DNA of 43,760 bases from Pseudohongiellaceae bacterium. GTDB taxonomy: Bacteria; Pseudomonadota; Gammaproteobacteria; Pseudomonadales; Pseudohongiellaceae. The position numbers and the translations under genes are program-made. The stretch is taken from NCBI GenBank assembly GCA_040905005.1, contig JBBDSI010000008.1, positions 21,360-65,119 of the forward strand, in the 5' to 3' direction. Position 1 is the stretch's first letter; each line of letters begins with the position of its first letter. The notes beneath the pieces were generated by a model. That model did not search any database and was not told the DNA's origin. It worked only from the letters and a program-made list of their open reading frames with translations. Below, piece by piece: positions 12,687 to 43,760 of the stretch.

Positions 12687-13796
12687 ATGTCAGCAGAACT
12701 CGAGCCCTACCTCAAGGCCATGATAGACAAGGACGCCTCCGATCTGTTTCTCAGCGTCGGAGCTCCGGCGAACATCAAGATCCAGGGCGTCACCGGACCC
12801 ATGGAGCAGGAGCCCCTGACCCGGGCCAGGATGGAGGCGCTGGTCCTCGGCGTGATGAGCGAGAAGCAGAAGAAGATCTTCGCCGAGACCCGGGAGATGA
12901 ACTTCGCCCTGGCGCTGCGCGATACCGGCCGCTTCCGCGTCAATGTCTATCGCCAGCGCGGCGAGATTGCCATGGTGGTGCGCTATCTCAAGTCAAATAT
13001 TCCCTCGATCGAGGAGTTGAACCTGCCGCCGGTGCTGAAGGACCTGATCATGGCGCCGCGCGGGCTGATACTGGTGGTGGGCGCCACCGGCTCGGGCAAG
13101 TCCACCACCCTGGCCTCGATGATCGACTACCGCAACCGCAATAGCACCGGGCACATACTCACCGTGGAGGACCCAGTCGAGTACCTGCATCGGCACCGCA
13201 AGTCGATCGTCGACCAGCGCGAGGTCGGCGTGGACACGCTCAGCTACGCCAACGCCCTCAAGAACGCCATGCGCGAGGCGCCGGATGTCATTCTCATCGG
13301 CGAGATCCGCGATCGCGAGACCATGCAGCACGCCATCGCCTATGCCGAGACCGGGCATCTGTGCCTGTCCACGCTGCATGCCAACAACGCCAATCAGACC
13401 ATCGACCGCATCATCAATTTCTTCCCGGATTCGGCGCATCCCCAGCTACTGCTGGACCTGTCGCTGAACCTGAGGGCTATCATCTCGCAGCGTCTGGTGC
13501 CGGGTATCGACGAGATGCGCGTTCCGGCGATGGAGGTCATGTTGCAGACCGCCTACATCTCCGACCTCATCCAGCGCCGCGCCATCGAGGAGTTCAAGGA
13601 CGCCATGGAGAAAGGCAGGGACGAGGGCATGCTGACCTTCGATCAGTCCCTGTACGAGCTGTACCGTGCCGGCAAGATCTCAGAAGTGGAGGCGCTCGCC
13701 CACGCCGATTCGCGCAACAACCTGACCGTGAAGATGCGCCTGCGCAAGGCCGGAAAAAGTGAGGGTGATGAGTCGGGGCTGACGATGGTGGACTGA
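12687..13796 (+). CDS. pilU: PilU-type type IV pilus retraction-family hexameric ATPase
   Basis: The ORF is 369 aa. It has Walker A GATGSGKST, an Asp box HILTVEDPVEY, Walker B/His box APDVILIGEIRDRET...GHLCLSTLHANNANQ, and a C-terminal FDQSLYELYRAGKISEVEALAHADSRNNL. It is colinear with P. aeruginosa PilU as I recall it. AGAGGT lies upstream of the ATG. Confidence 0.9.
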   Translation: MSAELEPYLKAMIDKDASDLFLSVGAPANIKIQGVTGPMEQEPLTRARMEALVLGVMSEKQKKIFAETREMNFALALRDTGRFRVNVYRQRGEIAMVVRYLKSNIPSIEELNLPPVLKDLIMAPRGLILVVGATGSGKSTTLASMIDYRNRNSTGHILTVEDPVEYLHRHRKSIVDQREVGVDTLSYANALKNAMREAPDVILIGEIRDRETMQHAIAYAETGHLCLSTLHANNANQTIDRIINFFPDSAHPQLLLDLSLNLRAIISQRLVPGIDEMRVPAMEVMLQTAYISDLIQRRAIEEFKDAMEKGRDEGMLTFDQSLYELYRAGKISEVEALAHADSRNNLTVKMRLRKAGKSEGDESGLTMVD

Positions 13797-13860
13797 TGCC
13801 AGTCGCGATTGGTTACCTGTCAGCCGGAGAGCGTTCGGGTCGAAACAGGATGTGTTGGGA

Positions 13861-14895
13861 ATGAAGAGAGAAGTGGCACCCGGCCAGGGTATGATCCAAT
13901 ACACGCAGACACTGGAGGTGGGCGACTTCGTTCCCTACTTCGTCATTGACAATGACGGGCACAAGCTGGACCTGCAGGCGAAGGCGGGCGAGCACCTGCT
14001 GCTGGTGGCCATGGCAGACCCCGACACGGAGGCATTGCAGACCGCGCTGGAGCGGGATGCACCCTATCGCCAGTATTTCATCAGCAAGTCGAATGCCGGG
14101 CTCAGCGCAGGCAATCTGTTTCATGACGAAGCGGTGCAGCGTCTGCTCTCGCCTCGAGGAGAGCGCTACGCAGCCTATTTGTTGAGTCCCAACCTGAAGA
14201 TCATCCATATCGCCGTCGCCGACAGCCTCGATGCACTGCTGGCCGCGGTGCCGGACAGGCAGCAGTTGCAACCGATTCCCAACTGGCTGCCGGTGACGGT
14301 TGTGCCGGACGTCGTCTCCGCCGACCTGGCGCAGCGGCTCATTGCCTGGTTCGACGCCAACCGCGGCAACGCTTTCAGCAACAGCGGCGGCTACAAGTCA
14401 CGCTCGCATCTGCATCCGCCGGCGGAGCTGGCCGCCGAGCTGGACGAGAAGCTATGCAAGTCATTGTTGCCGGAGATCAGCAAGGTCTACTACGCCGACA
14501 TCAGCCACCGCGAGACCTATAAGATCTGCTGCTACGACTCCAGCGAGGCCGGCACCTTCGGCAAGCACCGCGACACCATCGCGCCGCACCTGCATCGGCG
14601 TTACGCCATGACGCTGGTGCTGAATGACAACTTCCGTTCTGGCGGCGTGCGCTTCCCCGAGTATGCCGATGCCGTACTACCAGTGCCGAAATATTCGGCG
14701 CTCATCTTTCCCGGCTCGCTGTACCATCAGGTGACCAAAGTGCGTGGCGGCCGGCGTTACGTGCTGATCAGTTTCTTTTTCACCGAAGCCGAGGCACGGC
14801 ACAAGGCGGACAGCGAGCGCTATCGCTTCACCGTGCGGCGGGATCTGCGCGGCCTGCGCCTGCGTTCACTGATGCCCGGTCCCGGCGGTGACTGA
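13861..14895 (+). CDS. 2OG-Fe(II) oxygenase of the prolyl-4-hydroxylase type, with an N-terminal Cys-less redoxin-like region
   Basis: The ORF opens at a GTG at 13852. The first ATG is at 13861, with AGGA 10 nt upstream. The C-terminal half carries the facial triad and 2OG-binding residues: FGKHRD (HxD), LIFPGSLYHQV (distal His) and GGRRYVLISFF (Arg). The N-terminal LEVGDFVPYFVIDNDGHKLDLQAKAGEHLLLVAM resembles an AhpC/TSA strand-loop but has no Cys. Confidence 0.8.
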   Translation: MKREVAPGQGMIQYTQTLEVGDFVPYFVIDNDGHKLDLQAKAGEHLLLVAMADPDTEALQTALERDAPYRQYFISKSNAGLSAGNLFHDEAVQRLLSPRGERYAAYLLSPNLKIIHIAVADSLDALLAAVPDRQQLQPIPNWLPVTVVPDVVSADLAQRLIAWFDANRGNAFSNSGGYKSRSHLHPPAELAAELDEKLCKSLLPEISKVYYADISHRETYKICCYDSSEAGTFGKHRDTIAPHLHRRYAMTLVLNDNFRSGGVRFPEYADAVLPVPKYSALIFPGSLYHQVTKVRGGRRYVLISFFFTEAEARHKADSERYRFTVRRDLRGLRLRSLMPGPGGD

Positions 14896-15858
14896 GTCAG
14901 CCTGGCGCGCGTAGTAGGGGAAATACTGCGGCAACTGGGTGTGCAGTCCGATGAAGCGATAGTAATCGCCTATCCTGCGGTCCTTGCCCAGGCCGAAGCG
15001 GTCGCGGTTCTCGATGACGTCCTCTTGGTAGGCGGGGTCCACCTGTGCCAGGTCATCGAGTTGCAAATAGTATTTCACCTTGGTCCAGGTGCGGGCCCTC
15101 CACCCTGACGCACGACTGTTGTAGTCGCGGCGGACCTTGTCCGGCAGCCGATCCCTGGTGGTCAGGTACTCGGTGGCGATGGCGTGGCGCGTAGGTGTAA
15201 GGAAATCGAAACCGTGCGTCCAGAGTCTAGCGGAGTAGAAAAATTGCTCGGCCGAGTGCAGGCCGAAGTGGAGGTTGGGGTCCAGGGGTACGGACAGCCG
15301 CTGACGGCAGTCCATGAACAGCATGGCCGCCGTGATGCCGTAGGAGACGACCGGTAACTCCGGGATTCTCACCAGGGAGCCGTGCATCTTGATGTCGTCG
15401 GCGCCCACGTGACGAAAGCGGTTGATCTTGCCGATCAGGCCGAGCTTCTCCTCATCGTTCATGTTCTGGATGTTGATGGGATAGTGGGAGAGCACCGGCT
15501 TTTCCGCCAGTTCCTGGCAGCGCCTGAACTCCTCGATCAGGATCGTGTCCCAGTCCGGAAAGAAGCGGCTGTGGCAGTCGATCTGGAAGAAGAAGTCCTC
15601 GTCCTCGATCAGCGCCTCGCAGCGGGCGCGGGCGTAGATGGGGCCTCTGGCCTCGGTATAGGGCAGGCGATCGACCCGGACCTGGCGAAAGCGGGCGAGG
15701 GTGCTGAAGCGGTCACGCTCCGGATCGTCCTGCAGACAGACGCCGACGTGAATGCGCTCCGGGTGCCGGGCCTTGCTGTAGAGATCGTTGATGGTGTGCA
15801 GCAGATCGCGGTCCATGAAGCAGGCGATGGACACGAAGATGGCCGGGTGTTTGCTCAT
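14866..15858 (-). CDS. GT-A glycosyltransferase of the 'Glycosyltransferase (GlcNAc)' / Gnt1-like family
   Basis: The ATG at 15858 gives MSKHPAIFVSIACFMDRDLLHTINDLYSKARHPERIHVGVCLQDDPE, matching the IFV.IASYRD...G.C.Q start I recall for bacterial 'GlcNAc-transferase family' proteins. A DxH metal motif occurs in FFFQIDCHSRFF, as in ppGalNAc-T/Gnt1-type GT-A enzymes. There is no signal peptide or TM helix. Confidence 0.7.
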   Translation of the reverse strand: MSKHPAIFVSIACFMDRDLLHTINDLYSKARHPERIHVGVCLQDDPERDRFSTLARFRQVRVDRLPYTEARGPIYARARCEALIEDEDFFFQIDCHSRFFPDWDTILIEEFRRCQELAEKPVLSHYPINIQNMNDEEKLGLIGKINRFRHVGADDIKMHGSLVRIPELPVVSYGITAAMLFMDCRQRLSVPLDPNLHFGLHSAEQFFYSARLWTHGFDFLTPTRHAIATEYLTTRDRLPDKVRRDYNSRASGWRARTWTKVKYYLQLDDLAQVDPAYQEDVIENRDRFGLGKDRRIGDYYRFIGLHTQLPQYFPYYARQADSVTAGTGHQ

Positions 15859-15925
15859 GGGCCAAGTATGCAAGAAAGCCGGCGAAAACTCACATGCGGA
15901 TGCCGCAGCTCAGGCGGAAGCAGTT

Positions 15926-16897
15926 TCAGCGACCGCCGCGGCGCATGTCCACCGGCAGACTGACGATGAAGTGGGCGCCGCCGTCGGCTTCGTTTTCCGC
16001 GCGGATAGAGCCACGATGTTTCTTCACGATACCGTGACTGACGTAGAGCCCCAGTCCGGTACCCATGCCGATCTCCTTGGTGGTGAAGAAGGGGTCGAAG
16101 ATTTGCGGCAGGTCCTTCTCATCGATACCCGGCCCGGTGTCGATGAAGTGCACGTGAACCTGCTCGGCGTCGGCCTCGGTGCGGATGGTCAGCGTGCCGC
16201 CGCTGCCCATGGCATGGATGGCGTTGATCATGATGTTGAGGAATATCTGGTTGAGCTGGCTGTTACAGCCGTAGATCGCCGGTAGCTTGCCATAGGCCTT
16301 TTCGATGCGGCAGTTGTACTTCACTTCATTGGCCAGCAGTTTCAGCGTACTGTCGATGACCTCGTTGAGATCACACAGGCGACGATTTTCCGAATCGACG
16401 CGGGAGAAGTCCTTGAGATTGTTGATTATCTCCTGCACCCGTTCGGCGCCGGACAGGCTCTCGCGGATGGAATCCAGGCTGTCGCGAATCACGAAGGCCA
16501 GGTCGTGCTCGCGCGCCAGCGCGATCATGCCGTCCATCTCCGCCCGGTAATCCATGCCCTCGGGATCGGCATCCGCCTTGTCGGCCACGGACTTGAAGCG
16601 GTCGAAGAGCATGTTGACCAGGGACAGGTATTCCTCCAGTGTCTGCAGGTTGCTCTTGATGAAGCCGATCGGATTGTTGATCTCGTGCGCGATACCGGCG
16701 GCCAGCAGGCCGATGGAGGCGAGTTTTTCCTGCTGCACGAGCTGCGTCTGCTGCGTGTTTAGCGTCTGTGTGGCGTTGCTGAGCGATTCGGACGTCTCGA
16801 ACAGCTCTTTTGAGCGCAGTTCCAGCAGCGTCTCGGCTCGCTCGCGCGCCCGTCGCTGCTGCTCGTAGGCATCCTTGTAGTCGTGATCATCGTTCAT
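15926..16897 (-). CDS. Soluble sensor histidine kinase (coiled-coil + HisKA + HATPase_c, no TM or obvious sensor domain)
   Basis: It has the H-box LLAAGIAHEINNPIGFI, N-box FLNIMINAIHAM, G1 IDTGPGI and G2 GTGLGLYVS. I prefer the ATG at 16897 (MNDDHDYKDAYEQQRRARE). The listed start at 17065 would overlap the divergent regulator gene. Confidence 0.85.
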   Translation of the reverse strand: MNDDHDYKDAYEQQRRARERAETLLELRSKELFETSESLSNATQTLNTQQTQLVQQEKLASIGLLAAGIAHEINNPIGFIKSNLQTLEEYLSLVNMLFDRFKSVADKADADPEGMDYRAEMDGMIALAREHDLAFVIRDSLDSIRESLSGAERVQEIINNLKDFSRVDSENRRLCDLNEVIDSTLKLLANEVKYNCRIEKAYGKLPAIYGCNSQLNQIFLNIMINAIHAMGSGGTLTIRTEADAEQVHVHFIDTGPGIDEKDLPQIFDPFFTTKEIGMGTGLGLYVSHGIVKKHRGSIRAENEADGGAHFIVSLPVDMRRGGR

Positions 16898-17030
16898 AGT
16901 GTTGTCGATCGAGACGCCCCGGCGTGTGAATAATCGTCCGCCCGGCTTTCGCCCTGCGCGTGCGACGAATGGGATGGTAACATCCAGTCCTGAAGTAACC
17001 GTGACTATTTTAGCCGAATCGAAGACCTGA

Positions 17031-18455
<1,425 letters not shown>

Positions 18456-18463
18456 TCCCTCGT

Positions 18464-18558
18464 GTGACGCGTGTCACGCAGCCCCCCTGATATCGCTGGT
18501 ATCACACGTATCACCTGATACGGCTGATACGTAGTTGTTACGAGTCTGATACGTAGTT
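18464..18558 (+). promoter_or_regulatory. Cluster of repeated TGATAC/GTATCA motifs, a candidate enhancer (UAS) for the adjacent sigma-54 activator
   Basis: Read directly: GTGAC-N4-GTCAC (18464-18477). TGATAtcgctgGTATCA (18488-18504). A perfect palindrome GTATCA-cc-TGATAC (18508-18521). A direct repeat CTGATACGTAGTT at 18524-18536 and 18546-18558 (22-bp register), each followed by (g/t)TTACG. The cluster sits about 75-170 bp upstream of the -24 element, with an AT-rich spacer (18580-18630) between them. Confidence 0.6.
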
Positions 18559-18632
18559 TTACGTACCGCGGATTTCCAGAAAACCCAATAAGTAGCATAT
18601 AAAACAATGAGATAAGAGATTTTTTGCAAACC

Positions 18633-18648
18633 TGGCACGGTCCTTGAG
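18633..18648 (+). promoter_or_regulatory. Sigma-54 (-24/-12) promoter of the fimbrial-like operon
   Basis: The sequence cTGGCACGgtccTTGAg matches the consensus TGGCACG-N4-TTGCW at every position except the C of TTGC. It lies 47 nt upstream of the ATG at 18695, which has an AAGGAG Shine-Dalgarno sequence at 18683-18688. Confidence 0.7.
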
Positions 18649-18694
18649 ATAGGCAATGTGGATACTTTTTCAATTGCCTCACAAGGAGCAAACC

Positions 18695-19228
18695 ATGCAA
18701 ACACGTAATCTTCTCTCAGCTTTCGTTCTGACTTCACTGCTGTCTCCGCTGGCCCTGGCCGCCGACGATGGTGACCTCGGCGCCACCAGCACCGGCGAGA
18801 TCAATGTCGACCTCGAAGTGACTGACAGCGTCGAGATCTCCGCCCTTAACGACATCGATTTCGGCACTTACGGCGGTGGCGACACCGGCAACATCAATGC
18901 CGGCGATGGCTTCTGTGTCTATGTGAACGGCGGGGATGGCTACACCATCACCCCGACCTCCAGCAACGGGTCCTTCTCTCTCTCCGGCAGCAGCTTCGGC
19001 GACGAGATCGACTATGCCGTGAAGCTGGTCGGTGCGGCCACCGGTGCCGATGCGGCCGATGCCGTGTCCTACAACAGCGCCAGCGAAACTTTCCAGGGCA
19101 ACGTCGCCCGCGATTGTGGCTCCGCTGACAATGCCGCTCTGGACGTGAGCATCGAGGAAGACGAGATCCGCGCGGCCGCCACGGATACTTACTCCGACAC
19201 GCTGATCCTTCTCGTTAACCCCATCTAA
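18695..19228 (+). CDS. Secreted beta-sandwich fibre (pilin-like) subunit, SCPU/DUF4402-like, with one Cys pair
   Basis: The ATG at 18695 gives a 177-aa protein with signal peptide LLSAFVLTSLLSPLALA. The mature N-terminus has alternating hydrophobics (GEINVDLEVTDSVEIS), then LNDIDFGTY and GFCVYVNGGDGYTITP. A second Cys occurs in ARDCGSADNA. The C-terminus YSDTLILLVNPI resembles the Y.DT..VTV.F end of Csu/spore-coat-U-type subunits. Confidence 0.65.
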   Translation: MQTRNLLSAFVLTSLLSPLALAADDGDLGATSTGEINVDLEVTDSVEISALNDIDFGTYGGGDTGNINAGDGFCVYVNGGDGYTITPTSSNGSFSLSGSSFGDEIDYAVKLVGAATGADAADAVSYNSASETFQGNVARDCGSADNAALDVSIEEDEIRAAATDTYSDTLILLVNPI

Positions 19229-19249
19229 GGCAGCACCGGGACGCACTGA

Positions 19250-20269
19250 ATGCATTCTTTCCTCGCACAAGTCGTTCGCAATCCGGGTCAGGTTATCAAA
19301 CGATACCTGACCCGACTGCTGTGCTGCGCGTGTATTCTGCTGCTTCCCCTGAGTCTCGGCCTGTCCCAGGCGCAGGCGCGGCCCCGGAGTTTTTTGACGA
19401 TCGATAACATCGGTGATGTGAATTTTGGCACCTGGGTTAACGCCGGCCTGTTCTCCAGTGCTACCGACTTCTGCATCGAATCCTGGAGTCGTGGCAGCGC
19501 GGTGGATTATAAGATCCGCGTAATCAGCTTCGAAAATCCAGGCAGCCTGTATCTGTACAGGAGCGGTGATGCCTCGGCCACTGGCAATCAGCGCATCGCC
19601 GTCGACTTCATTCATAGCGACCTCATTGGCAGCGGCGGTCAGGAAACTCTGCTGGCGAGCCAGTATGACCAGATCGACAACGAGGGACAGCGAAACAACT
19701 GCGATACCGGCGGCAACAACGCACGGCTGCGTATCGAGCTGTCCGCACAGGCGCTGAATGCGGCCGCCGCCGGCAATTACAGCGGATCATTCTCCCTGGA
19801 GGCCGACAACGGCTCGACTGACAGCGTAACCTTCGATGTTTCCGTGGAAGTCCAGGGGAGCCCCGAAGTACGCATCTCCGATCTCGACGACCTCGATTTC
19901 GGCCTCTACGGCGCTGGTCGCACCGGTAACCTGCAAGCCAGTGAACGCTTCTGCGTTTACAGCAGTGAGAGCAGCTACCGCCTCTCCGTCAGTTCGTCCA
20001 ATCAGGACGGCGGCGGCAATTTCTATCTCACCAGCGGCGGCACCGACGATGCGATCCCCATGGACGTGCTCTTTGCCGACCGTGGTACCGGCGCCGGCAC
20101 CGAGCCGGTGGGCAACCAGTCTCTTAGTGGCGTCGGCAACAACACCGCCGACGACTGTGGCGGCGGCAACAATGCCACCCTGACCTTTACCGTTCAGGAG
20201 TCTGACCTGCGTGCCTCGTCATCCGGCGTCTACAGCGACTCGGTGGTGCTTCTGGTGCAGCCGGAGTAG
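19250..20269 (+). CDS. Secreted two-domain (tandem-duplicated) subunit of the same family; candidate tip or adaptor protein
   Basis: The ORF is 339 aa with a signal peptide (LLCCACILLLPLSLGLSQAQA). Both halves repeat the pattern of the upstream gene: D(V/L)(N/D)FG, FC(I/V), then (N/D)C(D/G)(T/G)GGNNA(R/T)L. The ending YSDSVVLLVQPE parallels YSDTLILLVNPI. Confidence 0.65.
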   Translation: MHSFLAQVVRNPGQVIKRYLTRLLCCACILLLPLSLGLSQAQARPRSFLTIDNIGDVNFGTWVNAGLFSSATDFCIESWSRGSAVDYKIRVISFENPGSLYLYRSGDASATGNQRIAVDFIHSDLIGSGGQETLLASQYDQIDNEGQRNNCDTGGNNARLRIELSAQALNAAAAGNYSGSFSLEADNGSTDSVTFDVSVEVQGSPEVRISDLDDLDFGLYGAGRTGNLQASERFCVYSSESSYRLSVSSSNQDGGGNFYLTSGGTDDAIPMDVLFADRGTGAGTEPVGNQSLSGVGNNTADDCGGGNNATLTFTVQESDLRASSSGVYSDSVVLLVQPE

Positions 20270-20341
20270 CTCTTGAAGCACAGGTGTTGGTCGGAAAACT
20301 GTTGTTACTCATCAAACCGGAATAACCGGAGGTATAGAACG

Positions 20342-21052
20342 ATGTTAAAGAAATGGCTTTTACTGTTAACGATGTCTCTGCTCAGCGGCCACAGCGTCGC
20401 TGAGCTGGTCGTCAACCGCTCCATCGTCATCTACGACGACCCCGCCTCGGTGAAAGAGGATGTCGTGGTGATCAACAGCGATAGCGAGCGCAACCTCTAT
20501 GTGCAGGTGGATGCCTACCGGGTCATGGCGCCCGGCAGCGTCAATGAGGAGTTGCTGAAGATCGTGCCCGACGTCGCCCCGGAATTCCTGGTATCACCGA
20601 ACAAGCTCGTGGTGCCCCCGTCGGCGCGCAACCTGGTGCGCTTCCTGGACCTCGCCGGCGACCGAGCATCCGAGCGCGTCTATCGCGTCAACCTGATCCC
20701 GGTCACGCCCCCGGTCGAGCTTGAGGACACCGGTGAGGGTCGCATCGCCTCGCGCCTGGAAGTGGTCGTCGCCTATCAGGTGCTCGCCATCGTGCTGCCG
20801 CATGACCCGCAACCGGAACTGAGTTTTTCCGGCGAGGGCGGCCTGGCGCGCTTTGGCAACACCGGCAACGCGAACTACCTGCTCACCGACGGCCAGCAGT
20901 GCAACCCTGCCGACCCCGCCGACTGCCGCAAGCTTCAGAACCGGCGCGTCTACCCGGGCAACGAGTGGACGCTGAGCCTGCCCTTCGACGGACCCTTCAC
21001 CTACAAGGTGAAGACGCACAACGGCCTGAGCTCGCGTCAGTTCGACCTGTAA
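20342..21052 (+). CDS. Periplasmic PapD-like pilus chaperone (divergent)
   Basis: The ATG at 20342 is preceded by GGAGG. The protein is 236 aa with signal peptide LLLLTMSLLSGHSVA. Its size suits two Ig-like domains. A conserved-position Arg lies near the mature N-terminus (ELVVNRSIVIYDD), and the F1-G1-like strands read NLYVQVDAY and LVVPPSARNLVRFL. Its position directly upstream of the usher-like gene also fits. Confidence 0.6.
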   Translation: MLKKWLLLLTMSLLSGHSVAELVVNRSIVIYDDPASVKEDVVVINSDSERNLYVQVDAYRVMAPGSVNEELLKIVPDVAPEFLVSPNKLVVPPSARNLVRFLDLAGDRASERVYRVNLIPVTPPVELEDTGEGRIASRLEVVVAYQVLAIVLPHDPQPELSFSGEGGLARFGNTGNANYLLTDGQQCNPADPADCRKLQNRRVYPGNEWTLSLPFDGPFTYKVKTHNGLSSRQFDL

Positions 21053-21080
21053 GGCCGAAAGACGGACTGGATTGAAAGAC

Positions 21081-23471
21081 ATGCGCCTCGTTTCCCTGAC
21101 ATTCCTGATGCTACTGGCCGCATTGCCGGCCGGCGCCGCCGAGGACTGGGTTCCGCCGGGTTTCGAGACCCTGAACGAGCCCCAGACCACGGCCGTGGAT
21201 GTCTATTATGGCGGTTACTTCCTGACTTCGACGCTGGCGCGCTTCGATCACGACGAACTGAGCTTCATCGATCCGCAGGCGCTGATTCTGCGTCTGACCG
21301 ACCTGAAGGACCCGGACGAGGCTGCTGCACTGATGTCCCGACCGCTGGCGCTTAATGCCGATCAACTCTGCCATTCCGAGTTCCAGCTCGATTGCGGCAC
21401 GCTGCAGCCCGAGGACGTGAATATCATCTTCGATCGCGGCAACCTGCGCGCCTGGCTGTTCATCGCCCAGGATCTGCTCAGGACCCGCCAGGCGAAAGAG
21501 AACAAGTACCTGCCGCGCTCAAGTGCCGCGCTGTCGCTGTTCAGCGACAGCGCACTGTTCTTCAACCAGGCCGGCGAGCAGGACACGCATTACAACGTGG
21601 CCAATAACACCCAGATCGCGCTGGCGGAGAATCGCCTGCAGATCCGCAGCAACCTCACCGACGAGGAGGGCCTGATTGTCGATACACTGGCGCTGTCGCG
21701 GGAGTTTCAGGGCAGGCGCCTGGCCGCGGGCCTGTTCCGTGGTGACGTCAACAATGCCCGCTTCATGAGCAGCGAGCAGTTCGTCGGCGCCTCTTTTCGG
21801 ACTTCGCTGGAGACGCGCACTGACCTGTCTCAGTTCCAGGGCAACACCATCGAGCTGTTCCTGGAGACCCGCAGTCGCGTCGAGATCTATCAGGACGGGC
21901 GGCTGTACAGCACCGAGTACTATGATGTCGGTAATCAGGAGCTCGAGACCTCGACGCTGCCCCCCGGCTCCTATGAGATCGAGATCCGCATCACCGACGC
22001 CGCCGGCAACACCCGCAGCGAGCGTCGATTCTTTTCCAAGAATTCACACCTGCCGCCGGTGGACCAGGACCTGTTCTTCGTGCAGGCCGGCAGACTGGTG
22101 GATGAGCGCCACCGCAACAGCAACCTGGAGGCTGACGCCACCTTCCTGCGCGCCGGTTACAGCAAGCGCCTGACCGCCACCCTTGGCGCCGATGTCGGCC
22201 TGTCCCTGACCAGGGACAGCACCATGGTGGAGACGGGCCTGTTCCAGCAGGGACGCAACTACCAGTTCCAGGCCGGCCTGGCCTTTGAGAGTACCGGCGC
22301 CGCCGGCCTCACCTCCAACCTGCGCGTCACCGCCGAGCGCTTCACCATGAACTTCAGTGCCCGACGCGTGCTCAGCGGCGAGAGGGAGAAGCAGCTCGGC
22401 ACCGCCATCAACCAGCTGTCTTCCTCCGTGGAAATGCCGACCCGCTTCGGTCCGCTGAGCCTGTTCTATCGCCGCAACGCCCGCGGCGATGACTTCGAAG
22501 GGCAGAACATCGGGCTGCGCTGGCGCTCCAATTTTTACGACCTCGGCAGCGGCAATCTCAATGCCAGCTTCGAGGTATCGCACAACGACGAGGATCTGTT
22601 CGCCGCCCTGACCCTGAACTACCGCTTCGGTGGCGCCGGGGTGACCCACTCCATCGCGCCGCGACTGGTGCACGAGAGCGGCCCCAATGCCGCTGGCCGG
22701 AACGCGTTTCGCGGCACCATGGAGTCGCGCCTGGCCATGGCGCCCGGTCGCTACCTCTCTCTGCGCGCCGATCGCAACACCCGCAGCGCCCTCGAGGCGC
22801 GCATGGAACTGGAAGGCCGCCGTGGCAGCGCCGACGTGGCCGCGCGCTACAACCTGGAAACCAGCGACCAGGAATTCTTCGGGCGCCTGAGCGGTCGCTT
22901 CGCCGCCACCGGTTCCTCCGCCGCGTTCGGCGGCGCCCGCTCCGGCGAGAGCGCATTGCTCGTCGCCGTAGAGGGCGTGTCCCCCGAGCGTCGCTTCGAG
23001 GTGCTGGTCAACGGCTCGCCGCGCGGCGAGGTCAATGCCGGGGGCACGCTGCTGCTGCCGGTGGCGCCCTACGAGACCTACGATATCAGCCTCAAGCCGC
23101 TGGGCGACGCCATCGTCGACCTCGACAGCCGCAGCTATCGCAGGACCGTCTATCCGGGCAACGTCATCGACGTGAGCTGGGAGGCGCGCGAGGTGGTCAT
23201 CGCCTACGGACGCCTGTTCGATGCCGTTGGCGAGCCCATCAGCGACGCGCTACTGACCAACGTCATCGGCCTGGCCACCACTGACGCCGGCGGTTTCTTC
23301 CAGGCCGAGATAGATCGCAATACCAGGACCCTGGAAGTGAAGAAGGGCGCCAAGACCTGCCGGGTGAGGCTACAGGGCGAGCCGGACGCGCGCCAGCTCA
23401 TGCCTCTGGGCGATCTCACCTGCGACAATATCTTCGGCGACGAGCGTGACACCCTGTTTGTCGGCGGCTGA
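21081..23471 (+). CDS. Outer-membrane usher-like assembly protein (TcfC/CS1-type rather than classical FimD/PapC-type)
   Basis: The ATG at 21081 gives signal peptide MRLVSLTFLMLLAALPAGAA; the listed start at 21072 is TTG. The protein is about 796 aa and beta-rich. The C-terminal module EVLVNGSPRGEVNAGGTLLLPVAPYETYDISL...GLATTDAGGFFQAEI resembles the TcfC E-set-like plug or C-terminal domains. The family assignment comes from memory of motif style only. Confidence 0.6.
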   Translation: MRLVSLTFLMLLAALPAGAAEDWVPPGFETLNEPQTTAVDVYYGGYFLTSTLARFDHDELSFIDPQALILRLTDLKDPDEAAALMSRPLALNADQLCHSEFQLDCGTLQPEDVNIIFDRGNLRAWLFIAQDLLRTRQAKENKYLPRSSAALSLFSDSALFFNQAGEQDTHYNVANNTQIALAENRLQIRSNLTDEEGLIVDTLALSREFQGRRLAAGLFRGDVNNARFMSSEQFVGASFRTSLETRTDLSQFQGNTIELFLETRSRVEIYQDGRLYSTEYYDVGNQELETSTLPPGSYEIEIRITDAAGNTRSERRFFSKNSHLPPVDQDLFFVQAGRLVDERHRNSNLEADATFLRAGYSKRLTATLGADVGLSLTRDSTMVETGLFQQGRNYQFQAGLAFESTGAAGLTSNLRVTAERFTMNFSARRVLSGEREKQLGTAINQLSSSVEMPTRFGPLSLFYRRNARGDDFEGQNIGLRWRSNFYDLGSGNLNASFEVSHNDEDLFAALTLNYRFGGAGVTHSIAPRLVHESGPNAAGRNAFRGTMESRLAMAPGRYLSLRADRNTRSALEARMELEGRRGSADVAARYNLETSDQEFFGRLSGRFAATGSSAAFGGARSGESALLVAVEGVSPERRFEVLVNGSPRGEVNAGGTLLLPVAPYETYDISLKPLGDAIVDLDSRSYRRTVYPGNVIDVSWEAREVVIAYGRLFDAVGEPISDALLTNVIGLATTDAGGFFQAEIDRNTRTLEVKKGAKTCRVRLQGEPDARQLMPLGDLTCDNIFGDERDTLFVGG

Positions 23472-23571: not shown

Positions 23572-23596
23572 CAGTGGCACATGGGTTGAAAACTGT

Positions 23597-34922: not shown

Positions 34923-35270
34923 AGGGGATTGATGTCTTATTGAGGAGATAAAGCAGTCGATTTCTGCGGAATTTGGCTGAAAAACGAACTTCACCAGGTT
35001 CACCATTCACCAAACTGGACAATTTCCCGGCTCGGATATACCCTTCGTGCTACTCAAAGGCGTGCAACTGGATTCTCTACTATCAGCTACGGCCCATTGG
35101 TCAGTCTATTAGAGCATTAACATTACCGGGATACCCGTAAGTGTAGGGAATTTCAGATCAGGTTTTTAGTGTGTATCAAGTAGCACTGATTTCGGTCTGT
35201 ACGCTCAGCCAGTTCCAGGTCGAACATGGCCGCAGGATGTGGACTTCATTGAAGTAGCTGAACAGGGTTA

Positions 35271-36254
35271 ATGAAAGAGCATTTTGAGTGGCTGGTAGAC
35301 CGTAATATCAGGGATGAGACTGGCGACAGCACCCGAATTGATATTAAGCAGGAAGGTCTCGAGTTGAAGCTGGAACGGCTGTCATATGGTCCGTCAGCCG
35401 TCGTTTTTTGCAAGGTCCAGACCAGGGACCCCTTTCCAATGACCCTTGCCGATTCTGCAACAGAAGAATCGGATCAGGCACTGACGTACATCGTCAATTT
35501 ATCCGGGTATTCGACCGGTAAATTGCTCAACGGTAGTAAATTTGTCCTGGATAAGACCTGGGGCATCCTGGCTGATTTTTCCGATGGCAGTGCCGAATTC
35601 GTCTCCCACCCAGGTGAAACAATAAGATCGTTCAGCGGGGCTTTTGCCATTAATACCCTGAGCGATTTATTGGGGGAAGATTATGAGGGAGCAGGCGCCG
35701 CAATACTGCGCGAAATGTCCGACAACCCGGGCGCCCTGATTAGCTCTTTTCGCATATCCCCGCAAATACGACTACTTGCCAGTAGCGCTTGGGACAATAC
35801 TCAACTGGCTGGTCCGCTAAGGCGGTTGTTCATGGAAGGTGTTTCCTTGCAGATATTGGCCCTTATCCTTGATCAGCGGCAATCGGTCCCGTTGCTTGGC
35901 CGTCCTGCTGAGATTAAGGTAATAGCCCACAAGAACGCTATTCGAGATGCTGCCGAACTGTTGTTGAGCGATTTGGGCAATCCTCCTACCATCGCCCAGC
36001 TGTCAGCAATGTCCGGTCTCAGTGCACGACAATTAAACGCTGGTTTTAGGCAAATCTTCGGATATTCTGTCTTCAATTTTCTGTGTGAGAATCGGCTGCT
36101 TTCTGCTAAAGAATTATTGATAAGACAACCAGATTTCCCACTAAAAGTGCTCGCATCCAAAATGGGCTATGCCCATCCCAACAATTTCATTGCGGCATTC
36201 AAGCGTAAATATGGAATACCTCCCAGGCAGTACGCAAAGTTGCATCGCCACTAG
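35271..36254 (+). CDS. AraC/XylS-family transcriptional regulator
   Basis: The ORF is 327 aa. The C-terminal double HTH reads PTIAQLSAMSGLSARQLNAGFRQIFGYS...LASKMGYAHPNNFIAAFKRKYGIPPRQY. The N-terminal about 200 aa are unrecognised. The gene lies in a low-GC context, 470 bp upstream of the giant gene. Confidence 0.85.
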   Translation: MKEHFEWLVDRNIRDETGDSTRIDIKQEGLELKLERLSYGPSAVVFCKVQTRDPFPMTLADSATEESDQALTYIVNLSGYSTGKLLNGSKFVLDKTWGILADFSDGSAEFVSHPGETIRSFSGAFAINTLSDLLGEDYEGAGAAILREMSDNPGALISSFRISPQIRLLASSAWDNTQLAGPLRRLFMEGVSLQILALILDQRQSVPLLGRPAEIKVIAHKNAIRDAAELLLSDLGNPPTIAQLSAMSGLSARQLNAGFRQIFGYSVFNFLCENRLLSAKELLIRQPDFPLKVLASKMGYAHPNNFIAAFKRKYGIPPRQYAKLHRH

Positions 36255-36726
36255 AAGCGCTTTTCTACCCTGTCACAATTTACGCCTCGCAAGAAAATGC
36301 CAACCATCATAGTTTTGTCAATACGCATAGTTTTTATCTGTCGACCGAATTTGCCCACCCACTATAATCCCTTCCTGCTTGATGAATATTTGCGGCCAAC
36401 GGGGACGCTCACAATATAATATAGTCATATGATTGCGAGCCAGTCGAAGCTGGCCAGCTCATCAGTATTGCCTCGCTCATTAAGCCTGTAACACGGTTTC
36501 TCTGCCAGATTGCGCCTATTGACGTGCGGTTCATGCCCTACGTTTGCTTACTTAATGGCTGGCCGTCGGTGCCGCCCTAAAACCTGCTTTATCGGTAGAT
36601 TATCAATAGCAAAGCTGGCGCTAAAAATAACTGGTTCGATCTGGACTCTACTGCCCAATTATTGCAGTAACTTTCATTAACCTGACCCATTTCCGGGACA
36701 ATTATTTCCAGCAGGATTCTATTAAT

Positions 36727-39700
36727 ATGGCCAATAACAAGAAAAAAGATAACCAGGGTTCGAGCAGTCAGGTTGAGCCCTTGACAAAGATAAAAGGCAC
36801 TAATGCTGACGACATCCTGTCGGGTGGTGACGGCGACGAAAAAATTGAAGGCGGCAAGGGCAACGATAACATTTTCGGCGGTGCCGGAAACGATGAGATA
36901 AAAGGTGGTAGCGGCAACGACATAGTCAATGGAGGCAGCGGCAATGATGATGTCGATGGTGGTCAGGGTGATGACCTGGCGATCTTTAACGTCGCGGAGA
37001 ACACAGCGAGCGACAATACATACGACGGTGGCGCGGGCATAGATACGCTCCTGCTGGAAATGACGCGGGAAGAATGGATGCGCGATGATATTCAGCAGGA
37101 TATCGCCAACGTCCTCCAGTTCATTTCAGAAAAGAGCAATCCTTCCGGGCAAGCCAACGCCAATACCTTTAATTTCCAGGCTTTCGATCTGGAAATTCGC
37201 CGCTTCGAGAGCCTCAGGGTCACTGTAGACGGTGTTGAGCTTGACCCCGTTGATGAGCCCGTCACTGCGAACGACAGTAGCAGTTCTACCTCTGGGGAGC
37301 ATGATCCGGTTTCCGGCAATGTTTTAGACAATGATGATGTCCCCGATCTGGTGCGCTCGGTGGCTCTTATTACTCCGCCAACAAAAGGTGAGCTCACTTT
37401 TAATGATGACGGCGGCTTTACCTATGAGCCAGGCGATGAATTCGACTATCTGGCCGAAGGGGAGAAAGAAAGGGTTTCCTTTACTTACCGGGTAGTCGAT
37501 GCCGATCATGACGAGGACACCGCAACCGTTAGCATCGATATTACTGGTACCAATGACGCGCCCATCGCGAATCCGGATGCTGGCACTTCGCAGGAAAACA
37601 GCGCCATATCAGTAGATGTGCTGGCCAACGATACCGACGTGGATACCAGTGACACGCACACTGTGATCCAGGCTGCCATCGCCAGCGGCGCCGGTACGGT
37701 TGCCATTGTAGACAACAGGCTTGAGTGGACCCCGGGAACTGATTACGACTATCTGGCTCTGGGCGAGGAGGCGACCGTTGTCATTGATTACAGCGTCAGT
37801 GATAACCATGGAGGTATCGATTCCTCAACGCTTACTCTGACAATCACTGGCTCAAATGATGGGCCGGTTGCCAATGTGGATAGCGGTAATACCGAAGAAA
37901 ATACGGTCCTTTCGGTAGATGTATTGGCCAACGATACCGACGTGGATACCAGCGACACCCACACGGTCGATAAAGCCACGATTGCCAGCGGACTGGGCGC
38001 AGTGGCAATTGTCGACAATCAGATTGAATGGTCTCCGCGTAGCGACTACGACTACCTGGCAGTGGGTGAGTCAGCGCAAGTCGTGATCGACTATACCATG
38101 AGTGACAATCACTCATCAGAAGCTTCTTCAATCCTCACCATTACCGTAACTGGCAGTAACGATGCGCCGATCGCTGTCGCTGATACCGCCAGTCTTGGCG
38201 AGAACGCGGCTGTCACTATTGATGCGCTGGCCAACGATACTGATGTGGATGCCAGCGATACCCATACGATTACCTCAGCAAGCATTGCTAGCGGGCTCGG
38301 TGCGGTCAGTGTGCAGAACAATACCCTGGTGTGGAGTCCGGCGGAAATGACCGCGCCTGGGGCCGGGGGGGCGTCGAGCCTTGACGGGCTGGAAATTTCG
38401 CCTTCTGTATACGACTACCTGCCCGAAGGCGAATCAGCAACCGTATTGGTGGATTACGCGATAAGCGACGGCAACGGTGGTGTGTCAGCCTCCACGGCAA
38501 CAATTACTGTCAATGGTGAAAACGATGCGCCCACTGTCGTAGCCGTAGAAATGCAGAGTGTCAGTGAGCAGGATGAGGTATTCGATGTAGACCTGTTGGC
38601 AAGTGCCAACGATGTCGATAGCACAGCTGTCCTCACTGCGATAAATGTGAGTGAGAAAGAAGGTAAAGGTGGATGGACGGTCAATGGCAATACGCTCACT
38701 ATTGATCCCGACTACTACGACAGTCTGAACAATGGTGAATCAGAGACACTCTCAATTAACTATCAGATTAGCGACGAGTTTGGCGCCACAGTGGATCAAA
38801 CTCTCGATTACACCATCGAGGGATTTACCGATGCGCCGGATCTGGATGTCGAGCTGGCTGACAGTCAAACCCTGATTAATGGCATCAATATTGTCATCAA
38901 CGTGAAGCCCGCGGCCGAGGAAGAAGTCAACCTCAGTTTTGCCAATGTTCCTGCTGGCGCCACGATCATGTATCAGGGCAAGGATGTTGCAGCGTCCGGC
39001 ATCATCAATGCACTTCCAACACTGCAGGTCTTGTTGGTGCTTGCTCCTGATGCCGACGCCGACACAGACCTGCAGATAATTGCCACTGGCGTGGATGATC
39101 AAGGCCTCCAGGTCGGTGATACGGCCGTTGAACCACTGGATGTTAAATATTCGGCAAGCACGAAAACGGATTCGCTCTCATTCACTGCTGTAGATCAGGG
39201 TATGTGGAGTGCCGGCGCTGCCCCCCAGATCGGCTGGCATGAATACATTCCCTTCGTCGGAACAGAGACAGAAGCCTGGACCAGCGGCAAATTCAACCTT
39301 GTTGATATCAGTCTTAATTCAGACAGCATCGCGGCTGACCTGTTAAGTTTCTTTCAGGATGCACTGGATCTGGCGACGGGCGAGCAACAGGTGGCTCAGG
39401 GCAACCGGGACCAGACCGTAGCAGACAGAGACACGGCTTACAAAAAGGCCGTACATGTAGATGCTGTAGTTGCCGCCAAGAATGACTATAACCTGAAGGA
39501 TGGCATCTATCAGACCGCCCATATTGCCTGGAGGGCCGCACAGGATCTCGCCGACGGTGCCAGTGACAACTCCGATGCCGATGCGGCAACTCTTGCTGAA
39601 GCGCAGGATCATCTGGCGACATTGCAGTCACAGCGCTCTGCCCTGGAGGTTGACGCCAGAATTTCCTGGAGTGTTTGGGTGCCCACACCCGTGTGGGATG

Positions 39701-42024: not shown

Positions 42025-42045
42025 GCCGTTATGATCTTGACTTTG

Positions 42046-42073
42046 CTGCCGGGGTGAATTTTCACCCCGGCAG
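42046..42073. terminator. Perfect 13-bp-arm hairpin between the convergent giant gene and fic; a bidirectional terminator
   Basis: ctgccggggtgaa (42046-42058) pairs with ttcaccccggcag (42061-42073). It lies 22 nt after the TAG at 42022-42024. Confidence 0.7.
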
Positions 42074-42135
42074 TCAACTCAGGAAGCAGAGAAATCTATA
42101 CCTATTGCCAGGAAATGTATAAAAAATAGAAAAAT

Positions 42136-43712: not shown

Positions 43713-43760
43713 TGGTAGCTATGGCTGGACTTGAACCAGCGACCCCAGCATTATGAATGC
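43713..43760 (-). tRNA. tRNA with anticodon CAT (elongator Met or lysidine-modified Ile2), 3' two-thirds only; the 5' part lies beyond the window edge
   Basis: The reverse complement reads gca|TTCATAA|tgctg-gggtc-GCTGG-TTCAAGT-CCAGC-catagct-A-CCA. That gives an anticodon loop with CAT, a 5-nt variable loop, a canonical T arm (GGTTCAAGTCC), the acceptor 3' strand, a discriminator A and an encoded CCA. The anticodon stem does not end in the three G-C pairs typical of initiator tRNA. Confidence 0.85.

Follow-up and report, generated by a model that had tools for sequence, protein, structure and literature searches.

The six genes at positions 15,926–23,471 of a 43,760-nt stretch of DNA from a Pseudohongiellaceae bacterium (contig JBBDSI010000008.1, positions 21,360–65,119; the whole stretch is referred to in the following as the window) very probably encode a non-classical chaperone–usher pilus under the control of a dedicated sigma-54 two-component switch. 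A soluble histidine kinase (HK) and an NtrC-family enhancer-binding protein (EBP) are followed by an operon for two pilin-like subunits (Sub1 and Sub2), a chaperone and an usher (Table 1). All six open reading frames (ORFs) were found at the coordinates and with the sizes given in an earlier, preliminary description of this DNA, and the gaps within the operon are indeed 21, 72 and 28 nt. That description had ranked the locus as its best candidate for an undescribed system, which overstates the case; every part has a recognized role in the non-classical chaperone–usher pathway. The locus is an uncharacterized, widespread environmental variant of this known pathway, with no new mechanism. The lineage to which it belongs combines alternative-type machinery, pilins that are structurally nearest to Csu, a gene order with the subunits first, and predicted sigma-54 control.

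The 236-aa protein had been proposed to be a PapD-like pilus chaperone. The protein itself had no Pfam match; it matched the NCBIfam TcfA model (3e-10) and, over residues 19–232, the CfaA chains 4ncd_A, 4y2o_A and 6k73_A in the PDB (1e-9 to 7e-8). A profile made from 25 homologues matched CfaA at 4e-20, EcpB at 3e-4 and the classical chaperone FaeE at 4e-3, while the archaic CsuC was not matched even at E ≤ 10. Two residues, P86 and R115, were invariant in the 25 homologues and aligned with the CfaA segments VTPQK and EEVYRV, respectively. A proline in strand D1 is invariant in all chaperone–usher chaperones, and Pakharukova et al. described the F1 arginine that anchors the C-terminal carboxylate of the subunit as the most characteristic feature of the non-classical chaperones (PMC4654587). 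Both features, the invariant Pro and the carboxylate-anchoring Arg, are present in the window chaperone and its family. C187 and C195 were also invariant, corresponding to a domain-2 Cys pair that is shared with CfaA. PF00345 is found in some of the homologues, for which the source records give the name PapD-type chaperone. The TcfA and CfaA matches and the conserved Pro and Arg bear out the proposed identity, and the periplasmic, two-domain PapD-like chaperone of the chaperone–usher pathway is present.

The 796-aa protein contained the TcfC E-set domain (Pfam, 1.8e-18; 66.3 bits against a cutoff of 29.4) and the CooC_C domain (4.7e-16; 59 bits against 29), which identify it as an outer-membrane usher and agree with the TcfC/CS1 type that had been suggested for it. 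Its match to the NCBIfam TcfC model was partial (6e-25; 87 bits against a cutoff of 1428), and identity to CfaC, CsdC and EcpC was limited to short stretches of 27–32%. With the usher domains and the pilus chaperone matches in agreement, the assignment of a chaperone–usher fibre operon stands. The preliminary description had allowed that the 236- and 796-aa proteins might turn out not to have chaperone and usher folds; at the level of sequence, both were recognizable as such. There is also, as it had noted, no subunit gene 3′ of the usher, the next gene being a convergent TonB-dependent receptor.

Two other features of the usher genes were observed. About 450 nt from the start of the window usher, at 21,528–21,553, the coding sequence contains a perfect 11-bp stem with a 4-nt loop (GCGCTGTCGCTG TTCA GCGACAGCGC), with a folding energy of about −24 kcal/mol for the 55-nt segment 21,516–21,570, followed by a T-rich stretch. 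The residues encoded there are not conserved among relatives, and the hairpin could attenuate usher expression or be due to chance. Among the related loci described below, four ushers (L004, 12,931–15,894; L015, 2,538–5,774; L012, 13,113–15,995; L017, 8,735–11,560) have N-termini that are 150–280 residues longer, the extension being either an additional domain or the result of an ORF called too long.

When Sub1 and Sub2 were compared with the Pfam and NCBIfam models at E ≤ 1, neither matched any pilin or fimbrial model, including DUF4402, SCPU, the CS1 major pilin and CfaE/CblD; their sole matches were to two unrelated families at E 0.15. The subunits thus lie outside every curated pilin model, in line with the earlier opinion that they are not classical FimA/PapA pilins. 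The DUF4402-like and SCPU-like style that had been ascribed to them was reduced to a faint resemblance: the window subunits match neither model, and among 70 distant family members four touch SCPU (PF05229; best 8.7e-5) and one touches DUF4402 (PF14352; 1e-4). Our literature search found no paper mentioning DUF4402. The motifs that had been quoted for the subunits (VEISALNDIDFG, VRISDLDDLDFG, FC(V/I), (D/N)C...(D/N)NA and YSD(T/S)x(I/V)LLVxP) are all present and are shared by the homologues. In the Sub1 homologues, C74 and C141 (the Cys pair), Y166, D168 and L170–L172 are invariant, and an N-terminal strand with alternating hydrophobic residues, I-x-V/L-x-L-x-V, is conserved.

Close homologues of Sub1 (≥50% identity) number 81; nearly all are unnamed or "hypothetical", and two are called "spore coat protein U-like" in Joint Genome Institute (JGI) records. 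A profile search against 1.84 billion representatives gave 1623 clusters (at 50% identity) at E ≤ 1e-3 and 639 at E ≤ 1e-10, and a tblastn search of plasmid records with Sub1 gave no match. To judge by its sequences, the Sub1 family is a large pilin family that is unnamed in the databases, and a family hidden Markov model (HMM) built from them would annotate many genes now called "hypothetical". Searching the PDB with the Sub1 sequence yielded nothing meaningful, and the family profile matched only the pilin domain of CsuE (E 0.34), through a C-terminal GxYxDTxxxxV motif. A Foldseek search with an AlphaFold2 model of Sub1 returned CsuA/B chains in all of the top four places, with E values of 9e-4 to 1.7e-3 and TM-scores (TMt) of 0.58–0.64; the best match was 6fqa_D (9e-4, TMt 0.64), and other chaperone–usher pilins ranked after CsuA/B. 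The model thus suggests that Sub1 is closest to CsuA/B by fold, which we treat as a lead and not as proof.

The 339-aa Sub2 protein had been described as tandem-duplicated, and internal comparison did resolve two pilin-like domains. The C-terminal half is 38% identical to Sub1 (6e-31), the two halves match each other at 1e-7, and both match the family HMM (2e-12 and 1e-34). The AlphaFold2 model of Sub2 had a predicted local distance difference test score (pLDDT) of 83, with values of 85–95 across the mature protein, and its best Foldseek matches were CfaE (4e-10) and CsuE (5e-10), followed by FimH, PapG and CupB6. On the basis of this model, Sub2 is predicted to be a two-domain tip adhesin similar to CfaE and CsuE. 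In mature Sub2, the first core strand stands at the very N-terminus, with no donor strand ahead of it, as expected of a tip subunit. The family HMM match to the C-terminal domain begins at the donor-strand positions (HMM position 31 corresponds to Sub2 residue 188), and in the model a strand comprising residues 190–201 starts three residues past the last strand of the N-terminal domain (residues 175–186). This interdomain linker, 190–201, is homologous to the putative donor strand of Sub1. We infer that Sub2 probably arose by fusion of two pilins, and that what was once a donor strand now complements the first domain in cis.

Relatives of Sub1 were found in 16 genome and 32 metagenome loci (numbered L001 upwards), all from metagenome-assembled genomes (MAGs) or metagenome contigs. 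The hosts are Pseudohongiella and other Pseudohongiellaceae, Halieaceae, Azotimanducaceae and unclassified Gammaproteobacteria. The order Sub1–Sub2–(Sub3)–chaperone–usher, where Sub3 is a third pilin gene discussed below, is kept in about 27 loci. More distant homologues of the chaperone (33–40% identity; L017–L019) also adjoin TcfC/CooC_C ushers and small, unannotated pilins of the Sub1 family. On a Sphingomonas plasmid with an usher that is 28% identical, the PGAP annotation names the usher pieces and the chaperone and calls the small flanking ORFs "hypothetical protein"; these ORFs had no Pfam pilin match. Orphan Sub1 genes with a putative sigma-54 promoter and TTTGCAAAT repeats, and no chaperone or usher beside them, were seen in L005 (3,121–3,651), L008 (930–1,568), L042 (5,539–6,066) and L006 (6,402–8,256). 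L006 keeps just a 209-aa usher fragment, and in the MAG behind L008 the remaining operon is on another contig, L015. Small histidine phosphotransfer (Hpt) genes adjoin Sub1 in L006 and L008.

The EBP matched the Pfam models Sigma54_activat (1.5e-65), Response_reg (9e-22) and HTH_8 (5.5e-6), as well as AAA_lid_14. The exact GAFTGA loop that had been reported was found at residue 235, and the Walker A sequence is GETGTGKE. With a receiver (REC) domain, an AAA+ sigma-54 interaction domain carrying GAFTGA and a C-terminal Fis-type helix-turn-helix (HTH), the protein has the features of the NtrC family. All NCBIfam equivalog scores were below cutoff, so it is the equivalog of no named EBP. The HK matched HisKA (1e-8) and HATPase_c (8.5e-25) and no further domain, with the H-box HEINNP. 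It was correctly described as soluble and sensor-less: it has no transmembrane segment, the maximum 19-residue Kyte–Doolittle mean being 1.2. Since its relatives align only from about residue 60 onward, the true start of the HK is probably M57 (at 16,897); in that case, the gene does not overlap that of the EBP, and the two are separated by a divergent intergenic region of about 130 nt.

The proposed link between the operon and a sigma-54 two-component system is real: it is conserved over many related loci, also after rearrangement. An EBP directly upstream together with a divergent kinase, as in the window, was found in L029, L039 and L045, with EBPs that are 46–57% identical to that of the window. 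In nine others (L003, L004, L006, L014, L022–25 and L051), an EBP is located upstream and no kinase was detected. L002 and L010 have the EBP downstream of the usher; that of L002 is 61% identical and accompanied by the kinase. The HK orthologues, which are divergent from the EBP in L002, L029, L039 and L045, are 42–55% identical. L007 has a regulator with MerR-type HTH and REC domains and a hybrid kinase; no EBP is present in its 13.7-kb contig, and no sigma-54 motif. Other family members are flanked by Hpt proteins and hybrid HK–REC–Hpt kinases, suggesting that phosphorelay input is a family trait.

A sigma-54 type −24/−12 element is located upstream of Sub1. Compared with the reference consensus TGGCAC-N5-TTGC, in which GG (−24) and GC (−12) are a fixed distance apart, the window element is perfect at −24 and has GA instead of GC at −12 (TTGA). 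Sigma-54-like motifs were not above chance in the window as a whole (7 found, 4.2 expected). Because of this lack of enrichment and the mismatch at −12, the case for the promoter rests on conservation between loci. When all loci with enough upstream DNA (about 40) were surveyed, the element (TGGCACG-N4-TTG(A/T)) was found in about 37, at 58–103 nt upstream of Sub1, and at −221 in L051. Eleven loci anchored on the motif gave the consensus TGGCACGc..CTTG.AATa with unconserved flanks, and some relatives have the canonical TTGC, or CTGC, at −12. This conservation argues for promoter function.

Between the EBP gene and the promoter, the window contains a cluster of repeats that is a candidate upstream activating sequence (Table 1). 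GTATCA/TGATAC/TGTTAC repeats were found upstream of Sub1 in the window, L001, L002, L010, L029, L038/39 and L045; these are the loci with the EBPs nearest to that of the window, plus L001, which has no EBP within its contig. Repeats of another type, TTTGCAAAT/TTTGCGAAT, were found in loci with EBPs that are 32–39% identical, plus some without an EBP on the contig. The two types of upstream repeat thus co-vary with the two types of neighbouring EBP. A palindrome, GTGTGACGCGTGTCAC, next to the EBP gene may be an operator or a weak terminator, and the AT-rich box CAATGAGATAAG is a possible binding site for integration host factor (IHF) or another DNA-bending protein. The sequence CAAT(A/G)AGATA(A/G)G recurs in L005, L006, L008, L009 and L010 at varying distance from the promoter.

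An inverted repeat (18,641–18,649 and 18,679–18,687) that was considered as a structure in the 5′ untranslated region was rejected: its left arm falls within the −12 element and hence before the point where transcription is expected to start. A second sigma-54-like motif, TGGCACATGGGTTGA, with the same TTGA variant, is located at 23,575–23,589 in the intergenic region between the convergent usher and TonB-dependent receptor genes. It is probably due to chance, since near-matches are no more frequent in the window than expected; no plausible plus-strand gene was found downstream of it. An Rfam scan of the locus found no RNA element, and simple scans for sigma-70 promoters and terminators gave nothing above background within the operon.

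Table 1. Features of the pilus locus and their positions in the window.
Feature	Position	Strand	Details
HK, soluble histidine kinase	15926–17065	−	ORF of 379 aa; coiled coil, HisKA, HATPase_c
EBP, NtrC-family sigma-54 response regulator	17031–18455	+	474 aa; REC, AAA+ with GAFTGA, HTH_8
Palindrome GTGTGACGCGTGTCAC	18461–18478		Inverted repeat just 3′ of the EBP stop codon
Candidate upstream activating sequence	18499–18558		GTATCA twice and (C)TGATACG three times, including CTGATACGTAGTT twice; 75–135 nt upstream of −24
AT-rich box CAATGAGATAAG	18605–18616		Between repeats and promoter
Putative sigma-54 type −24/−12 promoter TGGCACGGTCCTTGA	18633–18647	+	48 nt upstream of the Sub1 ATG
Sub1, putative major pilin	18695–19228	+	177 aa; signal peptide, putative N-terminal donor strand STGEINVDLEVTDS, then predicted incomplete Ig-like domain
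Sub2, two-domain tip-adhesin-like subunit	19250–20269	+	339 aa
Sub3 remnant	20281–20325	+	Last ~15 codons (QVLVGKLLLLIKPE and stop) of a deleted third pilin gene
Chaperone, periplasmic, alternative (CfaA/TcfA) type	20342–21052	+	236 aa
Usher, outer-membrane, TcfC/CooC type	21072 or 21081 to 23471	+	799 or 796 aa

By its machinery, the locus belongs with the alternative (alpha, class 5) pili, which include CFA/I (CfaABCE), CS1 (CooBACD) and Tcf (TcfABCD). It shares with these an usher with TcfC E-set and CooC_C domains, a CfaA/TcfA-like chaperone with the non-classical Arg anchor and the domain-2 Cys pair, and a single major pilin together with a two-domain tip adhesin of predicted CfaE-like fold. 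It differs from them in that its pilins are not recognized by the CS1 major-subunit model or the CfaE/CblD tip model, and in that the hosts are environmental marine Gammaproteobacteria. Its predicted control by sigma-54 and a two-component system is also different; enteric class 5 operons are controlled by the AraC-type regulators Rns/CfaD. In addition, the genes are arranged as major–tip–(third pilin)–chaperone–usher, whereas the canonical alpha order is chaperone–major–usher–tip (PMC10587679).

The fold and the C-terminal motif of the pilins lean towards the archaic (sigma) pilins of the Csu type, found in Csu of Acinetobacter and CupE of Pseudomonas. Structurally, the major pilin is best matched by CsuA/B, the C-terminal motif Y-x-D-T-(L/V)-x-(L/V)-x-V is like that of CsuE, and several pilin genes are located 5′ of the chaperone and usher, as in Csu and CupE. 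The differences are that the window pilins have no SCPU match, that the chaperone is not CsuC-like by sequence, that the usher has alpha-clade domains, and that the tip gene is not 3′ of the usher as it is in the sigma order, subunits–chaperone–usher–tip (PMC10587679). A two-component system beside a chaperone–usher operon is known from csuFABCDE–bfmSR (PMC12124856). In our locus, the regulator is a sigma-54 EBP, which is a further difference. BfmR and PprB are sigma-70-type response regulators, the latter from the cupE–pprAB locus, which the preliminary description had given as an example of a chaperone–usher locus beside a two-component system.

The nearest regulatory parallel that we know of is the control of the type IV pilin gene pilA by PilS/PilR and RpoN in Pseudomonas, where, as predicted for our locus, a kinase and an NtrC-type EBP drive a major pilin gene from a −24/−12 promoter. 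The two fibres are built by wholly different machinery, PilS/PilR serving a type IV pilus and our locus a chaperone–usher pilus, and the kinase here is without a membrane sensor domain. We found no paper in the searchable literature that combines chaperone–usher, sigma-54 and enhancer-binding protein, and a search for RpoN, chaperone–usher and fimbriae, at the level of titles and abstracts, revealed no description of a dedicated EBP for a chaperone–usher operon.

The 72-nt gap between Sub2 and the chaperone had been listed among the intergenic gaps. It is no plain spacer and holds the 3′ remnant of a third pilin gene: the sequence encoding QVLVGKLLLLIKPE and a stop is 86% identical to the C-terminus of Sub3 in L001, as detected by tblastn and checked in both translation and DNA. 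The corresponding gap is 537–839 nt in all of the approximately 27 relatives that have both genes, and a third pilin ORF of about 170–240 aa was present in 10 out of 10 gaps examined. Sub3 of the relatives belongs distantly to the Sub1 pilin family (4e-10 to 1e-3 with the family HMM); its N-terminus resembles a donor strand, and it ends in sequences such as LLVKPE. The remnant that matches the end of L001 Sub3 shows that this genome has lost the third subunit gene by deletion.

Several observations weigh against the reading of the locus as a functional, sigma-54-controlled chaperone–usher pilus. The Usher Pfam domain was barely above its cutoff in the usher (28.6 against 27.1 bits; 8.7e-7), and neither the usher nor its family profile had a sequence match to any solved usher in the PDB. 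The Sub1 model, made with 30 homologues, was of low confidence, with a pLDDT of 54. A poor model is presumably to be expected, as it represents a pilin without its donor strand, and chaperone-bound non-classical subunits are substantially disordered (PMC4654587). At −12, the consensus TTGC is replaced by TTGA or TTGT in the window and most relatives. The EBP beside the L017 operon comes after glnA and a PAS kinase; it is probably NtrC itself, from a housekeeping glnA–ntrBC cluster, and the adjacency of an EBP is therefore not always meaningful by itself. This case, and that of L019, which has no EBP nearby, would fit with the kinase and activator controlling something else and being placed beside the pilus operon by coincidence. 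We consider this very improbable, given that a sigma-54-type promoter element is found directly upstream of Sub1 in nearly all of the loci surveyed, that the pair remains linked to the operon even when it is located downstream (L002, L010), and that the type of upstream repeat switches along with the type of EBP. Lastly, the deletion of Sub3 may make this copy of the operon non-functional.

In the strongest form of this last point, the operon is a decaying, non-functional relic: only the end of Sub3 is left, all relatives with both genes have the longer gap, Sub3 was found in each one examined, and decay is known in the family from the truncated usher of L006 and the orphan Sub1 genes of L005 and L008. 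We think this rather unlikely. The deletion is clean and the ribosome-binding site of the chaperone has been kept, the other four operon genes, both regulators and the promoter have remained intact, free of frameshifts and stop codons, and CFA/I-type pili function with just a major and a tip subunit. It could also be argued that this is simply an archaic, Csu/CupE-type system with divergent SCPU pilins. The Sub1 model is nearest to CsuA/B, the family profile aligns weakly to the CsuE pilin domain, SCPU is touched by four of the 70 distant members and echoed in the two JGI names, and the subunits-first order resembles csu and cupE (PMC10587679). This would leave unexplained that the window subunits miss SCPU even at E ≤ 1, that the chaperone profile finds CfaA and EcpB and not CsuC, that the usher has the alpha-clade TcfC and CooC_C domains, and that the tip adhesin is encoded by the second gene of the operon and not 3′ of the usher; we regard it as improbable.

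A non-classical pilus with its own sigma-54 switch would work as follows. Going by its domains, the soluble kinase would phosphorylate the NtrC-type activator on its receiver domain. As suggested by the comparative footprints, the activator would bind the GTATCA/TGATAC repeats about 75–135 nt upstream of the −24/−12 element, and its ATP hydrolysis would open the complex formed by the sigma-54 holoenzyme, perhaps aided by bending of the DNA at the AT-rich box. Sub1, Sub2, chaperone and usher would then be transcribed as a single operon. By homology with CFA/I and Csu pili, the subunits would be exported via Sec and captured by the CfaA-like chaperone, the conserved Arg of which would anchor the C-terminal carboxylate of the subunit while the chaperone supplies the strand that the Ig fold is missing. 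The usher, of the TcfC/CooC type, would first take the two-domain Sub2, which is without a donor strand of its own and would occupy the tip, and would then polymerize Sub1 by donor-strand exchange via the N-terminal I-x-V-x-L-x-V strand. Sub3 of the relatives, a pilin with a putative donor strand, is a possible adaptor or terminator. With Sub3 deleted, the fibre here would either consist of Sub1 and Sub2 alone, or its assembly would be impaired.

A broader picture, which we put forward tentatively as possible rather than probable, is that these loci make up a lineage of their own within the non-classical chaperone–usher superfamily, widespread in the environment and placed between its alternative and archaic branches. 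In such a lineage, an alternative-type chaperone and usher would polymerize Csu-like pilins from a family that the databases do not know, the tip adhesin would derive from a tandem pilin fusion with the former donor strand completing domain 1 in cis, and sigma-54 phosphorelay control would be family-wide, for which the searchable literature gave no precedent among chaperone–usher pili. The division into classical, alternative and archaic systems and the curated pilin models derive largely from systems of pathogens, and to our knowledge chaperone–usher pili have been studied almost only in pathogens. The pairing of alternative-type machinery with pilins structurally nearest to Csu, in marine and other environmental Gammaproteobacteria, would offer a natural intermediate for studying the divergence of the non-classical pathways and the origin of two-domain tip adhesins from pilins, along with a clear case of sigma-54 control of a chaperone–usher fibre.

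Other genes in the window were also inspected. A PilT/PilU-like type II/IV secretion ATPase (T2SSE, 7e-46) is located 2 kb upstream of the locus, at 12,687–13,796, and no other type IV pilus genes adjoin it. The interval between this ATPase and the kinase (13,852–15,873) contains a 347-aa ORF without a Pfam match at E ≤ 1e-5, which by eye looks like a 2-oxoglutarate–Fe(II) oxygenase (HRD...H), and a convergent 335-aa glycosyltransferase of the "GlcNAc" family (PF11397, 5.5e-47). The region at 35,000–42,100 has a low GC content of 46–54%, compared with about 62% elsewhere in the window, and includes an AraC-type regulator (35,271–36,254) and a 1765-aa adhesin with RTX, cadherin and Big_9 repeats (36,727–42,024); it is a second, unrelated adhesion module that was possibly acquired horizontally. 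The Rfam tRNA model identified the 3′ portion of a tRNA gene on the minus strand at 43,716–43,760, truncated where the window ends; it scored 29.5 bits, with a gathering threshold of 29, and ARAGORN made no call there.

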